Shown: in pieces, positions 15,979 to 62,324 of the stretch
Numbering within the stretch: the first letter of the stretch is position 1
How the letters are laid out: each line of letters begins with the position of its first letter
Assembly: GCA_034423175.1 (NCBI GenBank)
Contig: DAOUJA010000062.1
Location: 64,526-128,525 of the forward strand
Length of the DNA stretch: 64,000 bases
Reading direction: 5' to 3'
DNA from: Dehalococcoidia bacterium
GTDB taxonomy: Bacteria; Chloroflexota; Dehalococcoidia; Lucifugimonadales; Australimonadaceae
The notes under the pieces: model-generated
What the model was told of the DNA's origin: nothing
What the model saw: only the letters and a program-made list of their open reading frames with translations
The model's database searches: none
Position numbers and translations under genes: made by a program

Positions 15979-16305
15979 CTACTTCCCCAGCACCGCTTCG
16001 CGGAGGGCGGCGTTCGCGCGAGTCTGCCAGCCGGGGCCGTCTGCGCGGAGCCGCGCCACAACGTCGGCATCGAGGCGGATCGTCACGCGCGTCTTGGGGT
16101 GCTCCTTGCGCAGGTGGGGCGCAACCTTCAGCCTGCCCTCGCGGTACGCCTTCACGATGTGTGGGACGACCTCGACCGCAGGGCGCATGCGGGCGAAGTC
16201 CTCGTCCGTCAACTCCGGGTTGTCAGGGTCCAGGGCGATGCCCCTCCGGATCTCTTGTTCCTCTTCCGGCGTCGGGCTTATGTGTCCAGGCTTAAGTGGC
16301 GGCAT
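15979..16305 (-). CDS. brnA: BrnA-family antitoxin (copy 2 of a tandem duplication)
   Basis: 108 aa with ..VKAYREGRL..KTRVTIRLDADVVARLRA.GPGWQTRANAALREAV, typical of BrnA. Confidence 0.75.
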   Translation of the reverse strand: MPPLKPGHISPTPEEEQEIRRGIALDPDNPELTDEDFARMRPAVEVVPHIVKAYREGRLKVAPHLRKEHPKTRVTIRLDADVVARLRADGPGWQTRANAALREAVLGK

Positions 16306-16311
16306 AGCGTC

Positions 16312-16638
16312 TCATTTCCCCAGCACGGCCTCGCGGAGCGCGGCGTTCGCGCGGGTCTGCCAGCCGGGACCGTCTGCGCGGAGGCGGGCTACGACATCGG
16401 CGTCGAGGCGGATCGTCACGCGCGTCTTGGGGTGCTCCTTGCGCAGGTCGGGCGCGATAGTGAGCCTGCCCTCGCGGTACGCCTTCACGATTTCAGGCAC
16501 CACCTCTATCGCGGGACGCGAGCGGGCCCATTCCTCCTCTGTCCACTCCCGAGCGTCGGGGTCCAGGGCGATGCCCCTGTTGATGGCCTCTTCCTCTTCC
16601 GGCGTCGGCCAGATGGTACCGGGCTTAAGTGGCGGCAT
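16312..16638 (-). CDS. brnA: BrnA-family antitoxin (copy adjacent to brnT)
   Basis: 108-aa paralog of 15979-16305. The start overlaps the brnT stop by 14 nt. Confidence 0.75.
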   Translation of the reverse strand: MPPLKPGTIWPTPEEEEAINRGIALDPDAREWTEEEWARSRPAIEVVPEIVKAYREGRLTIAPDLRKEHPKTRVTIRLDADVVARLRADGPGWQTRANAALREAVLGK

Positions 16639-16885
16639 AGCGTCTCATCTCCCCAGGGTTGGTCTTCCGCAGGCTGATGACGCGGACAGTGCCGTCTCGC
16701 ATCGTGTAAACCAAGTAGTGCAGCCGGTCGCCGATGTAGCCGTACGCGCCGTAGCGTCGTTCTCCGAAACGCATCTGAACTCTGATCTGCGCCGTCTCCC
16801 AGCGGAATCCTCGTACTTCTTCGAAGTCTACTCCGTGCTTCTCCAGGTTAGTCTGTCGCTTGGTCTCATCCCATTCGTAAGGCAT
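16625..16885 (-). CDS. brnT: BrnT-family ribonuclease toxin
   Basis: MPYEWDETKRQTNLEKHGVDFEEV...GDRLHYLVYTMRDGTVRVISLRKTN is the BrnT (DUF497) signature. An alternative TTG start exists at 16918. Confidence 0.75.
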   Translation of the reverse strand: MPYEWDETKRQTNLEKHGVDFEEVRGFRWETAQIRVQMRFGERRYGAYGYIGDRLHYLVYTMRDGTVRVISLRKTNPGEMRRYAAT

Positions 16886-32707: not shown

Positions 32708-35548
32708 ATGGCGGACGAGATCACGATCACGATAGACGGCCGGGAGGTTACGACGACCCCCGGCAAGATGGTGGTGCAGGCCGCGAACGATGCCGGCATC
32801 TACATCCCCTACCTCTGCTACCACCCCGGCATGAAGCCCTACGGCGCGTGCCGCATGTGCGTGGTGGAGGTCGAAGGCCAGCGCGGTACGCCCGCATCCT
32901 GCACGCTGCCCGTCCGCGACGGCATGGTGGTGAACACGAAGGCCGACGAGGCCGTGCAGGTCCGCAACACCACGCTGGACCTGCTGCTGTCAGAGCATCC
33001 GCACGGGTGCCTCACGTGTCATCGCATAGACCTCTGCGGTCCGCAGGACATCTGCCTCCGCCACGTGGACGTGGTCGACCGGTGCGTCACCTGTCCCAAG
33101 AACGAGCGCTGTGAACTGAAGGACACGACGCGATTCCATACGCAGGAGCTCGTCTCCCCGCTCACGTACCAGTACCGCAACCTGCAGGTGGAGACGAAGG
33201 ACCCCTTCTACGACCGCGACTACAACCTCTGCATCGTCTGCGCCCGTTGCACGCGGGCGTGCGACGAGCTGCGCGGCGACGTCGCGATAGGCATGACGGA
33301 GCGCGCGGGACAGGTGCTCGTCGGCACGGTGATGGGCGATTCGCTCCTCGAGTCGGGCTGCGAGTTCTGCGGGGCGTGCATCGACGTCTGTCCCGTGGGC
33401 GCGCTGACCGAGACCTCGTACAAGTGGGAGCGTCCGGCGCGCACCGAGCAGTCCGTCTGCGCCGAGTGTCCCGTCGGCTGCACGATGACCTACGAGGTCA
33501 ACCACTGGGAGCGCGTCGTGCGGGCCGTGCCCGAACTGAACGCTCCCGCGAACATGGGGCAGGCGTGCTTCAAGGGCAAGTTCGGGTTCGAGTACGTCAA
33601 CGACCGGCGCCGCATCCGGAAGCCGCTCGTGCGCCGGGATGGCGAGCTGCGGGAGGCGACGTGGGACGAGGCGGTCGCCGCCGCCGCGGAAGGCCTTGCG
33701 CGGCACAAGGGACCCGCGTTCGCGCTGATGGCCAGTCCCCGCAACACGAACGAGGAGCTCTACGCCGCCCAGAAGTTCGCGCGCGCCGTGATGGGCTCCA
33801 ACAGCGTCGACGTCGCGTCGAACGACCGCCCCGGCATCGTCGAGGGACTGCAGGACGTCTTCGGCTACTTCGCCGGGACGATGAGCACGTGGGAGCTCGC
33901 CGACTCCGCCGCCGTGATGGTGGTGAGCGCGAACCTCACGGAGGAGCAGAACGTCGTCGGCGTGCCTATCAAGCGCGCCGTCCGCGCCGGGACCCAACAG
34001 CTCATCGTCATCGACTCGCGCGAGGTCGAGCTCACGCGGTACGCGACCATCTGGCTCAGGCCGTACCCCGGCACGGACCCCGTGCTTCTCGGCGGGCTGC
34101 TCCGCGCCATCGTAGATGCCGGACTGGTCGACGTGGACGCGGTGCGCGAGCGCGCCGACGGCTGGGATGAGCTGCTCGCCTGCCTCGGTCCGTTCACACC
34201 GGACGCGGTCGCCGTCGAGACCGGCGTGCCTGCGGCAAGCATCGAGCAGGCGGCGCGCATCTACGCGGAGTCGGGCCCCGCGGCGCTGCTGTTCGGCGGC
34301 GACAGCTCGATAGGAGGCTCGCGCCGCACGCTCTCGCGGCTGGCTGCCGCGCTCGCGATCGCCACGGGGAACGTGGGCAGGCGCGGCGCGGGCGTTCTGC
34401 CGCTCTACCAGGGAGCGAACGGGCAGGGTGCGATGGACATGGGCGTCTGGCCCGCCGCGATGCCCGGCCACAACCTCATCCAGGAATCGCCGGAGGCCCG
34501 CGAGGCACTCGGCGCGCTCTGGGGCGCTCCGGTGCCGCTCGAAGGCGGCTCCGGCAACCGACACATGTTCGACCGGGCCCGCGAGGGCGCGGTCAAGGCG
34601 ATGCTCGTTCTGGGCGACCACGTCCACTACGAGGACGGAACGCTCGGCGACGTGCCCGGCGCGCTCGACGCGCTGGAATTCCTCGTCGCGACCAGCGCGT
34701 TCCCCTCCGCGGTGACTGAGCGTGCGGACGTGGTCTTTCCGGCCGGGGTCTGGGCAGAGAAGACGGGCACGTACACGAACGTCGAACGGCGCGTGCAGCC
34801 GCTCCGCAAGGTGACGAAGAACAAGCGCGTGGAGTCCAGGAGCGACCTCGATGTCGTGTGCGCCATCGCGGGCGCCATGGGAGCGCAGGGCTTCTCATGG
34901 GACGGCCCTCCCCAGGTGCTGGACGAGATAGCGCAGGCCGTAGCCGAGTACGCGGGCATCTCCTGGGAGCGCCTGCTGCGCGAGCGGCTGGAGATCGTGG
35001 CCACCCCCACCGGCGAGCCGCAGCCGACGCAGGTTATGTACACCGGCAACGTCCTCACCGGCCTCCAGTGGCCGTGCACGTCTGAGAGCGTACCGGACGA
35101 TGCAGGACTCTTCGTGGACCGGTTCCGGCACGGCAAGGCGAAACTGCAGCCGGTGGCGTGGCACCCGCGTCCGGAGGCTGACCGGCAGTTCCCGCTCATG
35201 CTCGCTCATGGACGGGTGCTTCTGGAGCCGGGCCGCAAGCCGAACGTGAAGGTGGAAGGCAAGCGCAACCGCGTCGAGCGAGAGGAGCGCTTCGTGCTCA
35301 ACCCCACGGACGCGGCTGCCGCCAGGCTCAGCGAGGGAGATGCGGCAGCGGTGACGACGGCGGACGGCGCTGAGCGGCGCGGCGTGGTCGCGCTCTCGGA
35401 CGCCGTGCCTCGGGGCGTGGTGTCGCTGACGACCCTCTTCGGAGAGCTCGCCGTCGAGGTTGATGCATCGGACCGTCCGGACCCCATGAACCATATCCCG
35501 CGGTTGAACGCCGTGCCCGCTCGTATCGCGGCTGCACGGTCGGAGTGA
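32708..35548 (+). CDS. FdhA/NuoG-like Fe-S plus molybdopterin-oxidoreductase-fold subunit, apparently lacking the catalytic Cys/Sec
   Basis: N-terminal 2Fe-2S motif (CYHPGMKPYGACRMCVVEV), a His-ligated cluster (HPHGCLTCH), two ferredoxin 4Fe-4S motifs, and the CAECPVGCTM cluster, followed by a large MopB-type domain. Confidence 0.8.
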   Translation: MADEITITIDGREVTTTPGKMVVQAANDAGIYIPYLCYHPGMKPYGACRMCVVEVEGQRGTPASCTLPVRDGMVVNTKADEAVQVRNTTLDLLLSEHPHGCLTCHRIDLCGPQDICLRHVDVVDRCVTCPKNERCELKDTTRFHTQELVSPLTYQYRNLQVETKDPFYDRDYNLCIVCARCTRACDELRGDVAIGMTERAGQVLVGTVMGDSLLESGCEFCGACIDVCPVGALTETSYKWERPARTEQSVCAECPVGCTMTYEVNHWERVVRAVPELNAPANMGQACFKGKFGFEYVNDRRRIRKPLVRRDGELREATWDEAVAAAAEGLARHKGPAFALMASPRNTNEELYAAQKFARAVMGSNSVDVASNDRPGIVEGLQDVFGYFAGTMSTWELADSAAVMVVSANLTEEQNVVGVPIKRAVRAGTQQLIVIDSREVELTRYATIWLRPYPGTDPVLLGGLLRAIVDAGLVDVDAVRERADGWDELLACLGPFTPDAVAVETGVPAASIEQAARIYAESGPAALLFGGDSSIGGSRRTLSRLAAALAIATGNVGRRGAGVLPLYQGANGQGAMDMGVWPAAMPGHNLIQESPEAREALGALWGAPVPLEGGSGNRHMFDRAREGAVKAMLVLGDHVHYEDGTLGDVPGALDALEFLVATSAFPSAVTERADVVFPAGVWAEKTGTYTNVERRVQPLRKVTKNKRVESRSDLDVVCAIAGAMGAQGFSWDGPPQVLDEIAQAVAEYAGISWERLLRERLEIVATPTGEPQPTQVMYTGNVLTGLQWPCTSESVPDDAGLFVDRFRHGKAKLQPVAWHPRPEADRQFPLMLAHGRVLLEPGRKPNVKVEGKRNRVEREERFVLNPTDAAAARLSEGDAAAVTTADGAERRGVVALSDAVPRGVVSLTTLFGELAVEVDASDRPDPMNHIPRLNAVPARIAAARSE

Positions 35549-40465: not shown

Positions 40466-41263
40466 ATGGTGAGCGAGGCTGAGCGCTCAGGGGCTGACGG
40501 CGCCACGGCATTGAGCGTGACGGAGCAATTCTCACTCCACCCGGAGATGGACGAGCCGGAGGAGTTCCTCGGCGGGCCGTACAACCTCTCGGTGTGGCAG
40601 CCGAAGGACGCCGAACACCGGCACTTCCAGCAGCACGCGCCGAAGGCCGGCGAGCCGATGCCGGACTTCACGCTGCCCGTGCTGGACGGTGGGGAGCTGA
40701 CGCTGTCGTCGCTGCGCGGCAAGCCGGTGATGATCGAGTTCGGCTCCGTCACCTGACCACCATGCGTGGCGGAGTCTCCGCTCATGAAGGACCTTGCGAG
40801 CAGGTACGCGGACGACGCGCACTTCCTGTTCATCTACACGCGGGAGGCGCATCCCGGCGAGCACTACCCGCCCATCCACTACTACGAGCAGAAGCTCCTG
40901 CATGCACGATCGTTCCGGGAGCGGCTGGGCATCAACCGCACGATACTCGTGGACTCGGTGCAGGGCAGGGTGCACCGCATGTTCGGCGGCGTGTCGAACA
41001 TGTCGTGGATCGTGGACCACACCGGGCGCGTCGCCTATCGGGCGGCGTGGACGGTGGCTGACGACATCGAGCGCGCCCTGGGCGAGGTGCTGCGGGCGCG
41101 GATGCTGAAGCGCGAGGGCCAGCCCGCCGCGGTCTTCTACCGGGAGATGGTGGGGCTGCGGCCGGCGAACGAGGGGCCGCCGCACGGGCTGCCGCGGTTC
41201 ATGGGCGGCGACGTCGCCGCGCGGCAGTTCGCCGATGCGCGGCACCGGACGGAGCGGGCGTAA
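40466..41263 (+). CDS. thioredoxin-fold, iodothyronine-deiodinase-like protein with in-frame TGA (candidate selenocysteine) at 40754-40756
   Basis: ORFs 40466-40756 and 40766-41263 share one frame. Read-through gives ..IEFGSVT-U-PPCVAES..HFLFIYTREAHPGEHY.. GAGGGAGG lies upstream of the ATG at 40466. Confidence 0.6.
40761..40786 (+). promoter_or_regulatory. SECIS-like stem-loop downstream of UGA 40754
   Basis: CATG (40761-40764) pairs with CATG (40783-40786), and GCGG (40769-40772) pairs with CCGC (40778-40781). The apical loop AGUCU sits about 17-21 nt after the UGA. Confidence 0.45.
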
Positions 41264-48123: not shown

Positions 48124-51051
48124 CTAATTGCTGAACCGCATCCGCGCCTGCGGAGCAGCGGCTCTCACCTTTGACTTCTTCCCACCGTGTATGGAAGGTT
48201 CGGCGCAGAGCTTCTCACGGAGCAGGTCCAGACTGGAGATGAGGTCGGCGGGCATACCCAGCACGTCTACCAGGAGGCGATAGTCCAGTTCTTTGCGCAC
48301 CTCGTCGCGGGCCGCTTCATTGAACGGGAGCATATGCCGGTGTTTCAAGTCTTCGAAGACCGCGTTTGCCTGTTCCACTTGGGTGTTGCTCAATGCGTCG
48401 ATGTTCAGCACTGGCATAGAAGCTGCCTGTAGCCGCGGCATTCTTCCTCGACCGCTCTGTTGCTTTGAAGAGTGCCACCAGTACATCAACCCGCCCAGAG
48501 TTGAGTTTGACCAGAGAGTATGCAGTTGTTCATGGTCCGGCTGGTTCAGCACGATGTTCGGCCATGATGCTCCCCCCAGCGTTTGCTGTTCGGTGAAGGC
48601 GACTGCCAATGCTTGTGAGTTGAAGCGAAAATCTGCATTGTGGTGTATCCGACTCCGCGCGGCCCAAATCTGATGTGCTCGCTCCTCTTTCCCAATCCGG
48701 ATGCGTGCTTCCGAGTCCGGTTCGACTACCATAGAACGCTCTCTAGTGGTATCGTGTCCCCAAAGTGTTGGATAGGTTGCACCGGCAGTATACGGGCTGT
48801 TGATATCAAAAGAACCTCGCTCCCCGGCTCCGTTGATGTCACGGTGGAGATACCCCAAATGCCCGATCTCCCTGAGTACAGTGACGGGCAGAGGATAAGC
48901 ATCAGCGCCCACTATGCCGGGCAACCATAGCTTTCCGAGCGTTAACTGATAGGCAGTCTGCGCCAGCGAGAGGTCGACTATCCCTGCAACCGGCCACTGG
49001 TCGCTCTCAGGGATTGGGCAGTCCAACACTTCGTCAACCTTCTCCTGGCCGACGAGTATCATCGAGCCGCCATACGGCCCGTCTTCCAGCTGTCTCACCT
49101 CGCCTGAATGTGCCAACCGAAGGACCTGCTGGCCGATCTCCTCGCCTTCCATGGGCGTTCGAGGGCGCCGGACCAGGTTGACGAAGATGCCGCGTCCTTT
49201 GTTCCCGCCCTTGCTGCGTTTCCGCGCGACGACCAGCACTTCTCCCATATCGGTATCGGCGGAGAAGGATTTTTCGCGTCCTTTCTCAGCCGCGATAGAG
49301 ACCACTACAATGTTCTCGTAGTCTTTGCGCCAGAGGTCCCGCGCCTTCTGCCAGCTCTGGCCCTGCAGGACGGCGAGCGGCAGCACCATCGCGACCGTCC
49401 CGTTGTCGGCAACCATCCTGTCAGCGAGCGCGATGAAGTAGGACGCGAGTCCGGCATTGCCGCTGGCGCAGGTTGCTTGTCCCAGGGACTTTGCGAGAGC
49501 AGCCATCCAGTCCTGTTCCTCTTTGTCCGTACCGAGGCCGGCAAACGCCGGGTTCGGTATCTTGCTGCGTGCACCGGCGTGGTTGGTTGGGCGAGTGAAC
49601 GGCGGGTTCATGATTACAAGGTCGAACTCCCCGGGGTTCACGTCAAACCGGTTCGTCACTTCTTCCGAACCACTCCCGGTTGTCCGCACGGGCGCGCCCG
49701 TGCGGAAGAGGGGACGTATCCGCGCGTCTTCCGCCAGCAGGTCCAGTGAGCCCAGTGCGTAGTGGCCCTTCTGCTGCCTGCCGTAGGGGAGCGTGTAGAG
49801 CCTCGTCTTGGCGAACTGCTCGGTGGGGTAGGCGGACGCCAGCATGGAGGCCGTGAGGTGGACGGACATCGGCATGATGTCCGCGCCGACGATTGCGTCT
49901 TCCATGGCGCGGTGGTGGAACTCCTTCGCGCTCCCGCCTTGCATCTCGTGGAGCGCAACGAAACGGCGATATGCGGCGGAGAGGAGCGTGCCGGTGCCGC
50001 ACGAGAAGTCCGCGACTTGGAAGTTGTCGTATGCCTGTTGTCCATCCTGTTCCGGCAGCGCCAGCATGGCGAGCAGCGCGGCGGCTGAAGGCGTGGTGTA
50101 GAAAGTGGCGAGGAACTTCCGGTCGGCGATGAGGCGCTGGAAGACGACGCCTGAGAGGTCGTGTGAGCGGGTCACTCCATCGCGGATGAGATCTCGCGCG
50201 GTTGCGGCGAGCGTGCCGAGCGTGTCCGAGGCAAGGCTTGTCGGCATGCACTCGATGACCTGGCGGGCGATGTCGAAGATGGGGTAGTAGTTGACGGCGA
50301 GGATCTTGCGCCACTCGTTAAGGACAGCGGCATGGTCTATTCGCCCGCTGGCCGCGCGCAGGCTTTCGATGGAGACGATGCCGTGGGAGCCCGCCAAATT
50401 CTCCTGAAAGACGATGGCGTTAGTGACGATGGTCATCGCCATGCGGTGGGTCTGCGGGCCGTCCTCCTGCTGCAGTCGCTCCGCGATCATCGGCCCGATG
50501 TCGGGGCGGAGTTTGATGGCGTCGCTCAGGTGCTCTGCGGCGGCGGTAACGCCCCATTCGAGGCGGTCAGCGGCGGCTTCTATGGCGTGTTTGGGAATGC
50601 CGGCGTTGTAGGCGAGGCGGGCGAGGTCTGCCGCGCCGCCAGTGAGCCATCCAGTGTCGGGGAAGCGCTCGTAGGATTCTGCTGACACCCCACTGAGCAG
50701 AGCGTACTCGATGCCCGCACGGCTGTCGCGCAGCGCCTCGCGGAGTTGGCCTTCGCTGAGGTCGCGAAAGCGTAGGGGGACGCGGGCGGCGATGACGGAG
50801 TCAATGCGCTGGTCGCTCGTACTGAGCGTCTCGCCGAGGCGTGACCGGGCGTCGTTCTCGACCGTGACCGCTGGCAGCACCTCGGTCTCGATGACGACGG
50901 GCGCCGAGCCTTCGGCGGCCACAATAACGTCCGGTTGGCGGTGGGAGCCCTGCAACTTGCCAAGTTGCTCACCACCGACCTTCCAGTTCGAGCGGAGACT
51001 GTTAAGCACCTCCGCCAGGGCTATGTTGATTTCAGGTTCGCTTGTGGCCAT
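48124..51051 (-). CDS. large N6-adenine DNA methyltransferase fusion (Type IIG/IIL-like; N-terminal nuclease-like region uncertain)
   Basis: AdoMet motif I VADFSCGTGTLL and motif IV VIMNPPF. The N-terminus ..QPDVIVAAEGSAPVVIETEV.. is a weak PD-(D/E)xK-like pattern. There is a long C-terminal region that could determine specificity. The ATG lies 10 nt after the glyQS stop. Confidence 0.7.
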   Translation of the reverse strand: MATSEPEINIALAEVLNSLRSNWKVGGEQLGKLQGSHRQPDVIVAAEGSAPVVIETEVLPAVTVENDARSRLGETLSTSDQRIDSVIAARVPLRFRDLSEGQLREALRDSRAGIEYALLSGVSAESYERFPDTGWLTGGAADLARLAYNAGIPKHAIEAAADRLEWGVTAAAEHLSDAIKLRPDIGPMIAERLQQEDGPQTHRMAMTIVTNAIVFQENLAGSHGIVSIESLRAASGRIDHAAVLNEWRKILAVNYYPIFDIARQVIECMPTSLASDTLGTLAATARDLIRDGVTRSHDLSGVVFQRLIADRKFLATFYTTPSAAALLAMLALPEQDGQQAYDNFQVADFSCGTGTLLSAAYRRFVALHEMQGGSAKEFHHRAMEDAIVGADIMPMSVHLTASMLASAYPTEQFAKTRLYTLPYGRQQKGHYALGSLDLLAEDARIRPLFRTGAPVRTTGSGSEEVTNRFDVNPGEFDLVIMNPPFTRPTNHAGARSKIPNPAFAGLGTDKEEQDWMAALAKSLGQATCASGNAGLASYFIALADRMVADNGTVAMVLPLAVLQGQSWQKARDLWRKDYENIVVVSIAAEKGREKSFSADTDMGEVLVVARKRSKGGNKGRGIFVNLVRRPRTPMEGEEIGQQVLRLAHSGEVRQLEDGPYGGSMILVGQEKVDEVLDCPIPESDQWPVAGIVDLSLAQTAYQLTLGKLWLPGIVGADAYPLPVTVLREIGHLGYLHRDINGAGERGSFDINSPYTAGATYPTLWGHDTTRERSMVVEPDSEARIRIGKEERAHQIWAARSRIHHNADFRFNSQALAVAFTEQQTLGGASWPNIVLNQPDHEQLHTLWSNSTLGGLMYWWHSSKQQSGRGRMPRLQAASMPVLNIDALSNTQVEQANAVFEDLKHRHMLPFNEAARDEVRKELDYRLLVDVLGMPADLISSLDLLREKLCAEPSIHGGKKSKVRAAAPQARMRFSN

Positions 51052-58432: not shown

Positions 58433-59593
58433 GTGACAACCGAACATCGCCACGAGCACGAGGGCCATGACCACGACGCGCACGCTGAGCACGACCATGG
58501 CCACGAGGGCCATGACCACGACGCCCACGCTGAGCACGACCACGGGCACGAGGGCCACGACCACGACGCCCACGCGGAGCACGACCACGGGCACGAGGGC
58601 CACGACCACGACGCCCATGGGCACGGCGGGCACGATCACCATGGTCATGGCCACGACCATGACCACGCCCACGACCTGCGCGGCGCCAGCAAGCGCAGTT
58701 TGGTCCTGGCGCTTGCGCTGATCTCCAGCTTCATGTTCGTTGAGGTGGCCGGCGGCATATTGTCCGGCAGCCTCGCTCTGCTGGCCGACGCGGCCCACAT
58801 GCTCACGGACGCCGCGGCGATCCTGCTGGCGCTCTTCGCGATGTGGATAGCGGAGCGCCCCGCGTCGGTCGAGAGCACGTTCGGCTACTACCGGACGGAG
58901 GTGCTCGCGGCGCTGCTGAACACGCTCAGCCTCTGGGTCATAGCGGGCTGGATCTTCTTCGAGGCGTACCACCGCTTCCTGGACACGCCCGAGGTGGAGG
59001 GTCCCCTGCTGCTGGGCGTCGGCGCGGCTGGTCTGGTCGTCAACATCCTGGCAGCCTACGTCCTGCACCGCGCGGCGGGCGAAAGCCTGAACGCGGAGGG
59101 CGCGTTCCAGCACGTCATGGCGGACCTCTTCGGTTCCATCGGCGTCGTCATATCCGGGATCCTGATCCTGACCCTGGCGACCACTCCGGACTCCCTCTGG
59201 TACCTCGCCGACCCCATCCTGAGCGTCGGCATCGGCCTGCTCATCCTCAAGAGCTCCTGGGGGCTGTTCATGCGCGTATTCAAGGTGCTCCTCGAGGGCA
59301 CGCCCAAGCACCTGGACATGTACCGCATCTGCAGCGACATGGAGGACGTCCCCGGCGTGACCATCATCCACGACGTGCACGCATGGACGATCACCTCCGG
59401 CTACGACGCGATGACCGCACACGTACTGGTCGACTCCACACAACGCGGCAATGAGGACGACATGCTCGCGCGGCTGCGGTCGATCGCCTACGGCTACGGC
59501 ATCGGCCACGTCACGCTCCAGTTGGAGTACTCGGCCACGGAATGTGAGGAGAACCACCACGTGGAGCACCTCGTCGCGCGCGCTCGGGTGTAA
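58433..59593 (+). CDS. czcD: cation diffusion facilitator (CzcD/ZitB-type) metal exporter with a His-rich N-terminal repeat
   Basis: CDF core ..LLADAAHMLTDAAA.. and ..HV..D...S.., six TM helices and a C-terminal domain. The N-terminal HEGHDHDAHAEHDHG occurs three times. GTG start. Confidence 0.85.
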   Translation: MTTEHRHEHEGHDHDAHAEHDHGHEGHDHDAHAEHDHGHEGHDHDAHAEHDHGHEGHDHDAHGHGGHDHHGHGHDHDHAHDLRGASKRSLVLALALISSFMFVEVAGGILSGSLALLADAAHMLTDAAAILLALFAMWIAERPASVESTFGYYRTEVLAALLNTLSLWVIAGWIFFEAYHRFLDTPEVEGPLLLGVGAAGLVVNILAAYVLHRAAGESLNAEGAFQHVMADLFGSIGVVISGILILTLATTPDSLWYLADPILSVGIGLLILKSSWGLFMRVFKVLLEGTPKHLDMYRICSDMEDVPGVTIIHDVHAWTITSGYDAMTAHVLVDSTQRGNEDDMLARLRSIAYGYGIGHVTLQLEYSATECEENHHVEHLVARARV

Positions 59594-59618
59594 GCCGGGA
59601 GCCGGTCCAAGAGACTCA

Positions 59619-59645
59619 AGAGGGGGCGCACCCGCGCCCCCTCTT
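59619..59645 (+). terminator. GC-rich hairpin after czcD (terminator candidate)
   Basis: AAGAGGGGGCG-CACCCG-CGCCCCCTCTT, 26 nt after the stop codon. There is no clear T tract. Confidence 0.4.
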
Positions 59646-59723
59646 CGCGTACGGGCGCCGCACGGCGAGGCGCGACTTGCCGGTGGACGCGGCGCCTCGT
59701 AATCTTCACCGCGGAGGTGCGCG

Positions 59724-60548
59724 ATGGCCGACTATCCCCGGAACGACCTGCTCGTCGAGACCGAATGGCTCGCCGAGCACCTGACTGACCCGAACGTACG
59801 CGTGATCGAGATGGCGCAGGACGGCAGCGACTTCGAGGCCGGACACATCCCCGGCGCGGCGCTCTCGCCCACGTGGCAGATCAAGGGCTCGGAGCGGACG
59901 AGGCTCGTCGCGCCGCCGGACGAGGCGAAGGCGTGGTTCGAGTCCGTCGGCATCGGCGACGATACGCTGGTCGTCGGGTACGACCGCTTCCACAGCCGGG
60001 ACGCGTCGCGGCTCTGGTGGGTGCTCAGCTACTACGGCCACACCAACGTCCGCGTGCTGAACGGCGGATGGACGAAATGGACGGCGGAAGGGCGCGACGT
60101 CGAGACAGGCGCGTCCACCGTCGCGGGCGGGGACGTGACGTTCACGCCGCAGCCGCCGGACCACTCCATCGAGTCGGACGTGGACAAGCTCAAGGCCGCC
60201 ATCGGCGCGGACGACGCCGTCATCTGGGACGTGCGGACGGAGGACGAGTACACGGGAGCGAACTCGCGCGGCAACGCGCGGACGGGGCACGTGCCCGGCG
60301 CGGCGTTCCTGGAGTGGGTGAACCTCGTGGCGGAGGACGACACGTTCAAGTCCGCGGCGGAGATCGAGGAGATCGCCCGAGGGCTCGGCATCACGCCGGA
60401 GAAGCAGGTGCACGTCTACTGACAGGGCGGGGTGCGTGCGTCGCACGCCATGCTCGCCCTCAAGCTCATCGGCCACGAGTCCGTCTGCATGTACGACGGC
60501 TCGATGGGAGAGTGGGCGAACCGCGACGATACGCCCCTGGAGGAATAG
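59724..60548 (+). CDS. two-domain rhodanese sulfurtransferase with in-frame TGA (candidate selenocysteine) at the catalytic-Cys position, 60420-60422
   Basis: The N-terminal domain ..VETEWLAEHL.DPNVRVIE.. is followed by a catalytic domain that reads ..QVHVY-U-QGGVRASHAMLALKLIGHESVCMYDGSMGEWA.. when read through to TAG 60546-60548. GGAGG lies upstream of the ATG. Confidence 0.6.
60425..60459 (+). promoter_or_regulatory. SECIS-like stem-loop downstream of UGA 60420
   Basis: Outer stem GGGCG (60425-60429) / CGCCC (60455-60459). Inner stem GTGCG (60432-60436) / CGCAC (60442-60446). Apical loop UGCGU. Confidence 0.45.
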
Positions 60549-60621
60549 GACGCATCGCCGCGGCAAGGGGAATGCCATCTGAGGGAGAGGCAGCGCGGTA
60601 GGCCGCCCCACGGGAACGAGG

Positions 60622-60646
60622 TCCCTGCCTCCGCAGGAACGACAGG
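60622..60646. repeat. REP-like hairpin element
   Basis: TCCCTGC-CTCC-GCAGGAA followed by CGACAGG, in an intergenic region. Confidence 0.45.
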
Positions 60647-60668
60647 ACCCCGCCCGCGTCCGATGTTG

Positions 60669-61472
60669 CTACTCGATGGCGAAGACCGTCTGGACGCGCA
60701 CGCTCACCTCGAGCTCGCCGCCGAAGAACTGCGTCGGCGGGCCTGCCGAGTCCATCGCTGCGACCGCGAACCGCGCTTCGGCGACCGGGAAGGTGTCGAA
60801 GGTGCTCTCCGATATCGAGACGAGCGGGCCCCGGACGACCTCCAACTGCGTCGCGTAGAGGTCGGCCTTCTCTATCGCGTTCTGGATGGCCAGGACGCGC
60901 GCCTCCTCCTCCAGCGCCGCGGTGTCCTCGATGCGGAAGTCGACGCTCTGCACGCGGATGAGGTCGCCGCCCGCGGTGACGGCGTTGTCCACGACGTCGC
61001 CGGTGGCGTCCAGATCGCGCAGCGTGACGTTCAACGTGTTGGTCACCTGGAAACCGAGCAACTGCTGTTCGCCGTCGCGCACGTACTGGTAGCGCGGGTT
61101 GATGGAGAAGCGGGCTGTGCGGATGTCTTCCTCCGCGACACCTGCCGCGCGCAACTCCTCGACGACGGCCGTGAGGGCGCGTGCGGCGGCGTCCCGGGCT
61201 TCGGCGACGGTGTCGCGCAGTGCTTCGACGCCGAGGGAGACGACCGCGATGTCCGGCTCGCCTGAGACGGTGCCTGTCCCGGATGCGTGGATGCCGCTGT
61301 TCGTGTCGTAGACGATGGTGCTGCCGCCGCGCGTGTCGGTCGGCGCGGAGTCGTCGCCGTCAGCATCGCCGTTGCCGCTGCCGTTGCATGCGGCGAGCAG
61401 CGCCACAAGCAACAGGGCCGCGCTCAGCAGCAGGACAGTCTTCGTTGCGGGGAGGGCCGGGAGGGATGGCAT
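60669..61472 (-). CDS. SIMPL-domain (DUF541) lipoprotein
   Basis: Lipobox ..LLAAC, then a SIMPL-type body (..ARFSINPRY.. and ..VSVRVQTVFAIE). AAGGAGA lies upstream of the ATG at 61472. Confidence 0.7.
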   Translation of the reverse strand: MPSLPALPATKTVLLLSAALLLVALLAACNGSGNGDADGDDSAPTDTRGGSTIVYDTNSGIHASGTGTVSGEPDIAVVSLGVEALRDTVAEARDAAARALTAVVEELRAAGVAEEDIRTARFSINPRYQYVRDGEQQLLGFQVTNTLNVTLRDLDATGDVVDNAVTAGGDLIRVQSVDFRIEDTAALEEEARVLAIQNAIEKADLYATQLEVVRGPLVSISESTFDTFPVAEARFAVAAMDSAGPPTQFFGGELEVSVRVQTVFAIE

Positions 61473-62249: not shown

Positions 62250-62324
62250 GCCCCCGTAGCTCAATGGCAGAGCGCCGGGCTTTTAACCCGGGCGTTGCAG
62301 GTTCGAGTCCTGTCGGGGGTACCA
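62250..62324 (+). tRNA. tRNA-Lys (anticodon UUU), CCA encoded
   Basis: Manual cloverleaf: acceptor GCCCCCG/CGGGGGT, D arm GCTC..GAGC, anticodon stem CCGGG/CCCGG with loop CTTTTAA, T arm GCAGG-TTCGAGT-CCTGT, discriminator A, then CCA. Confidence 0.85.

Follow-up and report, generated by a model that had tools for sequence, protein, structure and literature searches.

An in-frame TGA in a rhodanese gene of a Dehalococcoidia bacterium very probably encodes selenocysteine (Sec). The gene lies in a 64-kb window (the whole stretch of 64,000 nucleotides that was analysed), and the reading of positions 59724–60548 of the forward strand as a Sec-encoding gene, with a predicted product of 274 residues that belongs to the two-domain SseA/TST-type rhodaneses (COG2897) and carries Sec at codon 233 (UGA), is assigned a probability of about 0.92. 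The Sec-rhodanese family and its recoding hairpin are not new and were described in 2005 from ocean metagenomes, where a "Rhodanese-related sulfurtransferase" (COG2897) with three sequences was listed among 15 new families (Zhang, Fomenko & Gladyshev, Genome Biol 2005, PMC1088965). A first-pass annotation, made from the letters of the window alone, had proposed a Sec rhodanese at this place; the observation is confirmed by the analysis described here, and the interpretation is supported.

Translation of the ORF at 59724–60422 ends at the TGA after ...PEKQVHVY, and reading past this codon in the same frame gives QGGVRASHAMLALKLIGHESVCMYDGSMGEWANRDDTPLEE, a stretch of 41 codons closed by TAG, so that the TGA, the continued frame, and the final stop all lie where the first-pass annotation had placed them (Table 1). 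The read-through protein, with Cys written at the TGA, contains two rhodanese stretches (Pfam PF00581, E 1.3e-32), the better of which covers residues 153–266, and the Rhodanese match therefore spans the TGA. Pfam and the structure alignment both show the COG2897 SseA/TST-type layout, in which two rhodanese domains stand in tandem and the C-terminal one is catalytic. The six-residue active-site loop is kept, with a UGA-encoded residue (Sec) and not Cys at its first position; this exchange sets the selenoprotein subfamily apart and does not represent a loss of the site. The GC content at codon positions is alike on both sides of the TGA (GC3 0.95 upstream vs. 0.90 downstream). The competing 242-aa ORF at 59873–60601 is an out-of-frame, Arg/Gly-rich shadow, as had been suggested. 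A promoter and terminator scan of 59550–60700 found neither, and the rhodanese gene is located ∼3.4 kb from the end of its scaffold, which is scaffold_4 (710,759 bp) of sample SAMN17524321 in ENA assembly ERZ23495130.

Table 1. Positions of the Sec-rhodanese gene, its predicted recoding elements, and the second candidate selenoprotein gene in the window.
Feature	Position	Strand	Basis
Shine-Dalgarno-like GGAGGTG, 4 nt 5' of ATG 59724	59713..59719	+	Direct sequence reading
Full CDS, predicted selenocysteine rhodanese, 274 residues, Sec as residue 233, TAG stop	59724..60548	+	Translation, Pfam, 1UAR alignment, orthologues
C-terminal catalytic rhodanese domain, residues 153–266, UGA inside	60180..60521	+	Best Pfam stretch
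UGA, predicted Sec codon at the site of the persulfide-forming catalytic Cys	60420..60422	+	Homologue and 1UAR alignment, TGA in orthologues
Active-site loop codons U-Q-G-G-V-R-A	60420..60440	+	Translation and homologue alignment
SECIS-like hairpin within the CDS: lower stem, internal loop, upper stem	60424..60460	+	RNAalifold consensus, 30 orthologues
Upper stem GCGUGC/GCACGC (60434–39 with 60443–48) and triloop G-U-C (60440–60442)	60434..60448	+	RNAalifold, synonymous invariance
True stop TAG	60546..60548	+	TAG in 29/29 complete orthologues
C-terminal peptide of the predicted read-through product, e.g., LIGHESVCMYDGSMGEWANR			
Deiodinase-like, thioredoxin-fold candidate selenoprotein gene, TGA 40754–40756	40466..41263	+	In-frame TGA scan, Pfam, homologues

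The position of the TGA coincides with the catalytic residue of the Cys-containing rhodaneses. Ten full-length homologues carry the catalytic Cys in the TGA column (Y-C-Q-G-G-[IV]-R-A), and full-length relatives with 44–53% identity read Y-C-Q-[GA]-[GA]-[IV]-R with Cys in the same column. Among the solved structures, the Thermus thermophilus protein 1UAR aligns over residues 4–272 (E 8.5e-44) and places the Cys of "vvyCRIAERSSH" opposite the TGA, and Azotobacter vinelandii RhdA (1E0C) and Escherichia coli SseA (1URH) likewise align full-length with the read-through protein; the proposal that the TGA stands for the catalytic Cys of SseA/TST-type rhodaneses is borne out by these alignments. The solved Cys rhodaneses (1UAR, 1E0C, 1URH, and the Mycobacterium SseA/CysA proteins 3HZU and 3AAX) have the same fold and two-domain layout, and in 1UAR (CRIAER), as in the window protein, the catalytic residue opens a six-residue loop that ends in Arg. 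They differ from the window protein in having Cys instead of Sec and in the remainder of the loop, which reads RIAER, QTHHR, or GSGVT in place of QGGVR. At the nucleotide level, the catalytic codon was TGC or TGT in all Cys-form loci that were read (28/28). Within the best 120 database homologues, 95 are called as proteins of 230–246 aa and cover ∼85% of the query, which means that these called proteins end exactly at the TGA; where names are given among those relatives, they are Chloroflexi, SAR202, or Dehalococcoidia.

A scan for orthologues, restricted to one genome per species, yielded 30 loci with 67–93% identity, all in metagenome-assembled genomes of Dehalococcoidia, SAR202, or Chloroflexota, and several of them on closed chromosomes of about 2.4–3.7 Mb; complete chromosomes with the orthologue include OZ244813.1, OY764542.1, and OZ241740.1. 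DNA-level reading found TGA at this codon in 30/30 orthologues, and each of the 29 complete ones continues with 40–41 conserved in-frame codons followed by TAG. Variable sites at codon positions 1/2/3 number 17/9/31 downstream of the TGA and 123/105/209 upstream, and synonymous differences equal or exceed non-synonymous differences on both sides in most comparisons. Judged by these substitution patterns, the 41 codons downstream of the TGA are under protein-level selection. The first-pass annotation had read the loop as U-QGGVR-A and had assigned the 41 residues behind the TGA to the catalytic domain, and both statements agree with the sequence and with the coding selection seen in the orthologues. 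The retention of the TGA together with a coding frame across the orthologues effectively excludes that the TGA is a sequencing error or that the gene is split or a pseudogene; these alternatives are considered in turn.

A genuine stop at the TGA would leave a 232-residue rhodanese fragment that has no active site, either a pseudogene or a regulatory, non-catalytic protein, with the downstream frame as a remnant. Every pipeline annotation of an orthologue that was looked up does give a 231–232-aa protein, and TGA is the ordinary stop of other genes in the window; nevertheless, this explanation is very improbable, given that the 40–41 codons remain open, in frame, and TAG-ended in all 29 complete orthologues, the most divergent of which are about 68% identical, that these codons change in the manner of coding sequence where a remnant would gather stops and frameshifts, and that the fragment would be deprived of the whole catalytic loop. 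Even less credible is a split gene, in which the N-terminal 232 residues would assemble with a C-terminal peptide that has a start of its own. A spurious 32-aa ORF on the read-through part (window positions 60450–60548), starting from an ATG at codon +10, comes from one gene caller, but Met is present at +10 in only 18/30 orthologues, the resulting peptide would contain neither the catalytic residue nor most of the loop, and sequence reading reveals no apparent ribosome-binding site before this codon. A catalytic domain carried by a separate polypeptide in the orthologues, which had been named beforehand as a possible counterargument, was not encountered in the 29 complete loci, where the frame simply continues. 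A sequencing or assembly error that turned TGC or TGT into TGA needs just a single base change, and its probability is nonetheless negligible, since the same TGA recurs in 30 assemblies made independently, among them complete chromosomes from long reads, and additionally in three Sanger shotgun contigs from 2005; the Cys codons that had likewise been named in advance as evidence against Sec are found in none of these assemblies.

The mRNA immediately 3' of the UGA can be folded into a conserved hairpin in the orthologues. RNAalifold applied to the 30 orthologues gives a 14-pair hairpin whose triloop begins 17 nt past the A of the UGA and consists of G-U-C in the window and of G-G-C in other clades. 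A stem-loop had been claimed at 60425–60459 with its apical loop ∼15–19 nt after the UGA, where a bacterial SECIS element would be expected; the comparative fold extends this by one nucleotide at each end and places the loop inside that range. The five codons from +4 to +8 (GTG CGT GCG xCG CAC) are 2- to 6-fold degenerate and show zero synonymous variation in 30 species, with the Arg codon in the stem being CGT in 30/30 orthologues, whereas the Gly codons just 5' of these invariant stem codons and most codons 3' of them vary freely. Pairing was quantified in a set made up of 27 orthologues and the three published Sargasso Sea sequences, in which 98.1% of the stem cells are paired vs. 23–57% with slid partners. 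Changes on both sides occur at three stem pairs, and the outermost pair of the upper stem (21:35) is GC, CG, or AU; most stem positions are plainly invariant, and the direct covariation comes from these three pairs. Four close Cys homologues with the same peptide (CQGG[IV]RAAH) encode its Arg by CGC or CGG and form 3–4 of the 6 upper-stem pairs, and 24 more distant Cys homologues form 0–5 of 6. The stem is thus broken in the Cys homologues, and the hairpin goes with the UGA and is no by-product of the amino acid sequence. The single-sequence folding energy of the rhodanese hairpin is unremarkable for its composition (z = −1.6); a single-sequence fold is uninformative in a genome of 66% GC, and the argument for the hairpin therefore rests on the comparative data.

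With its synonymous-site conservation, small G-containing apical loop, expected distance from the UGA, and absence in the Cys forms, the hairpin behaves like a bacterial SECIS element, a reading that these sequence comparisons support. The SECIS elements of E. coli fdhF and fdnG are hairpins within the coding sequence that directly follow the UGA and present a small apical loop with G-U roughly 17–20 nt away. The rhodanese hairpin shares with them the position in the coding sequence, the small loop, and the distance from the UGA, but its loop is a 3-nt G(U/G)C instead of GGUC, and an obvious bulged U is absent. It likewise displays the feature given for such elements in PMC1088965, a stem-loop that follows the UGA directly and has a G in its small apical loop. 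A scan of the whole window against Rfam at gathering thresholds returned a tRNA-Lys alone and no SECIS family, and a permissive scan of 60350–60620 returned one chance sRNA match (E = 1.4) and again no SECIS family.

A second candidate selenoprotein gene emerged when the window was scanned for in-frame TGAs flanked on either side by coding-like sequence; two cases in the 64 kb were convincing, the rhodanese and a deiodinase-like gene. The latter reads ...GKPVMIEFGSVT-(TGA)-PPCVAESPL..., corresponding to the motif FGSVT-U-PPC (UxxC), and its protein has Pfam matches to AhpC/TSA, Redoxin, and T4_deiodinase. The published motif of the bacterial "deiodinase-like" selenoproteins is FGSYT-U-PPF...EAHP, into which the window gene fits, and Cys homologues read FGSCT-C-PPF and FGNFT-C-GPF. 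Behind its TGA, a hairpin GCGGA-GUC-UCCGC presents a GUC triloop at nt 21–23 counted from the U of the UGA, as in the rhodanese; its single-sequence fold has z = +0.95. The TGA of the deiodinase-like gene is kept in two closed chromosomes of 3,235,595 and 2,381,319 bp, whose lengths match those of the chromosomes of L011 and L029, two of the loci with a TGA-containing rhodanese. The close database relatives of this gene are called only as the 150–176-aa part 3' of the TGA. Both genes avoid TGA as their true stop, the rhodanese ending in TAG and the deiodinase-like gene of the window in TAA (41261–41263); among the other likely genes of the window, by contrast, TGA is the stop of roughly one in three.

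Other in-frame TGAs of the window were tried as Sec codons and rejected. The TGA at 35546 is a true stop, with the start of the next gene immediately after it, and the candidates at 50683, 7254, and 16314 (the last on the reverse strand) showed a weaker GC signal at codon positions than the two genes that were accepted, with the hairpin also absent at 16314. The latter TGA parts two ORF pieces in a region at about 15980–16650 (reverse strand), in which two copies of ∼110 codons with similar peptide strings lie in one frame and no convincing hairpin is seen; this region looks like a tandem duplication or repeat and not a selenoprotein gene.

Sec decoding in the source genome is supported indirectly by three lines of evidence, namely the second selenoprotein gene, the ordinary use of TGA as a stop, and the presence of the decoding machinery in a relative. 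Of about 40 other likely genes in the window, about 14 have TGA as their stop, and the codon is therefore not a reassigned one. With E. coli SelA, SelB, and SelD as queries, tblastn gave no hits in the 64-kb window or among 58 related loci, and ARAGORN, applied to the window and to loci L001–L030 only, reported no tRNA-Sec. The window is about 2% of a genome of roughly 3 Mb, and the absence of Sec genes from it is expected and says little about the source genome. One orthologue, 92% identical, lies on contig MPMJ01000004 (locus L017) of SAR202 cluster bacterium bin16, and for this genome (MPMJ00000000) one copy each of SelA (COG1921), SelB (COG3276), and SelD (COG0709) has been tabulated (Slaby et al., 2017, Table S4; PMC5649159). 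The same source assigns bin16 to the SAR202 clade with a GC content of 65.6%, compared with 65.9% for the window, and SelA and SelB co-occur in most of its sponge-symbiont bins (PMC5649159). Insertion of a standard amino acid at the UGA (Trp, Cys, or Gly, through near-cognate suppression, a suppressor tRNA, or a reassigned code) would be compatible with the lack of Sec-gene hits in the window, and Cys at this position would yield an ordinary rhodanese. This explanation is as improbable as a genuine stop: the two candidate TGAs in 64 kb both fall where homologues in known selenoprotein families have a redox-site Cys and are both followed by a like hairpin, TGA ends many other genes, SelA, SelB, and SelD are encoded in a relative that has the orthologue, and none of the 30 species has a Cys codon there, although a single mutation would turn TGA into one.

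With UGA read as Sec, the mechanism proposed for this gene is that of bacterial selenoprotein synthesis. The mRNA 3' of the UGA would fold at 60424–60460 and, with the G(U/G)C triloop 17 nt on, would act as a bacterial SECIS element; the hairpin would recruit SelB-GTP-Sec-tRNA(Sec) to the ribosome, and the UGA would be read as Sec instead of a stop. Translation would then run 41 codons further, complete the catalytic domain, and end at the TAG, and the predicted product would be a full rhodanese of two domains whose active-site loop reads U-Q-G-G-V-R. If its chemistry parallels that of the Cys enzymes, sulfane sulfur would bind to the selenolate as a Se-S(H) adduct and then be handed on. With Sec in place of the persulfide-carrying Cys, sulfane sulfur would be shuttled via a Sec-Se-S(H) intermediate, and the lower pKa and higher nucleophilicity of selenium may make the sulfur-transfer step faster. 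The predicted Sec is fixed in the sampled SAR202/Dehalococcoidia clade (30/30 Sec, 0 Cys), and it is conceivable, though rather unlikely, that the selenol does what a thiol cannot, such as delivering selenium to SelD or driving a reaction of sulfur or organosulfur compounds at the heart of SAR202 metabolism. To our knowledge, no Sec-rhodanese has been characterised biochemically.

The gene agrees closely with the family described from the Sargasso Sea. The sequences in the supplement of that study read ...YTY-U-QAGVRAAH...YDGSMGEWAN..., ...ATY-U-QGGIRAAH..., and ...VTY-U-QGGIRAAH...YDGSMGEWANRDDTPL, the DNA after the UGA in the Sargasso sequences reads TGACAGGCTGGAGTGCGTGCGGCGCACGC..., and the SECIS element of AACY01016424 was drawn in Figure 3 (PMC1088965). 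The window protein shows 46–52% identity to the 2005 sequences over the overlapping parts (BLASTP, E 3e-44 to 3e-22), with Sec at the same place, the common motif Y-U-Q-[AG]-G-[VI]-R-A-A-H...YDGSMGEWAN, and a match in both COG and two-domain type. Similarly, the hairpin core GUGCGUGCGGCGCACGC is common to the 2005 family and the family of the window gene at an equal distance from the UGA; the three Sargasso sequences align gap-free to 27 orthologues and fit one structure, the hairpin core of the first being identical by letter to that of the orthologues with a GGC loop and those of the other two fitting the structure. Differences concern the source and the loop: the window protein belongs to a SAR202/Dehalococcoidia lineage of high GC content (66%), the nearest relatives of which include sponge-associated genomes, whereas the 2005 sequences are partial, low-GC planktonic fragments, and in about half of the orthologues, including that of the window, the loop is GUC (a Ser codon) instead of GGC (an Ala codon). 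The family was met again in the GOS survey of 2008 (PMC2398784) and appears in reviews of 2022 and 2026, the latter of which lists it as "form 4, UxxG"; the representative given in the review is MCY3690685.1. The single-domain rhodanese-like selenoproteins of COG0607 (forms 1–3, TsoB) share the rhodanese fold and Sec at or near the catalytic site (PMC13188914; PMC9312934) but are separate families, built of a single domain or of fusions, with the motifs UxxS, CxU, and UxxxxU.

Public annotation of these genes stops at the UGA. The window protein and its orthologues, looked up in NCBI, JGI, and ENA, are entered with 231–232 aa as "rhodanese-like domain-containing protein" or "sulfurtransferase"; the named NCBI records MCY4582433.1, MCY4448203.1, MYA51518.1, and MQF86685.1 are cut at the UGA, and none is marked as a selenoprotein. 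P0100, a public call of 274 aa, is in a shifted frame. As the public calls end at the UGA, metabolic reconstructions of SAR202 and of sponge symbionts would miss a predicted active sulfurtransferase and undercount selenoproteins, and the correction of annotation in these genomes is the remaining issue, for which the present gene is a clean and well-conserved example. It reveals no new kind of system and would not surprise a selenoprotein specialist, but, as far as sequence can tell, it would confirm the selenium dependence of an abundant marine, sponge-associated Chloroflexota lineage, and it belongs to a well-sampled family in which the contribution of Sec to persulfide chemistry can be tested.

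The neighbouring genes encode MFS transporters, a His-rich cation-efflux protein, a SIMPL protein, signal peptidase I, and a tRNA-Lys, and give no functional clue. The upstream neighbour (58433–59593, forward strand) is the cation-efflux (CDF) protein, and its N-terminus contains four near-identical His/Asp-rich repeats (HEGHDHDAHAEHDHG), which are probably a metal-binding tail. A tRNA-Lys(UUU) gene is present at 62250–62324 (forward strand) of the window and lies 1.7–3.5 kb downstream of the rhodanese gene in 25/30 orthologous loci, and the neighbourhood is therefore syntenic across the clade.
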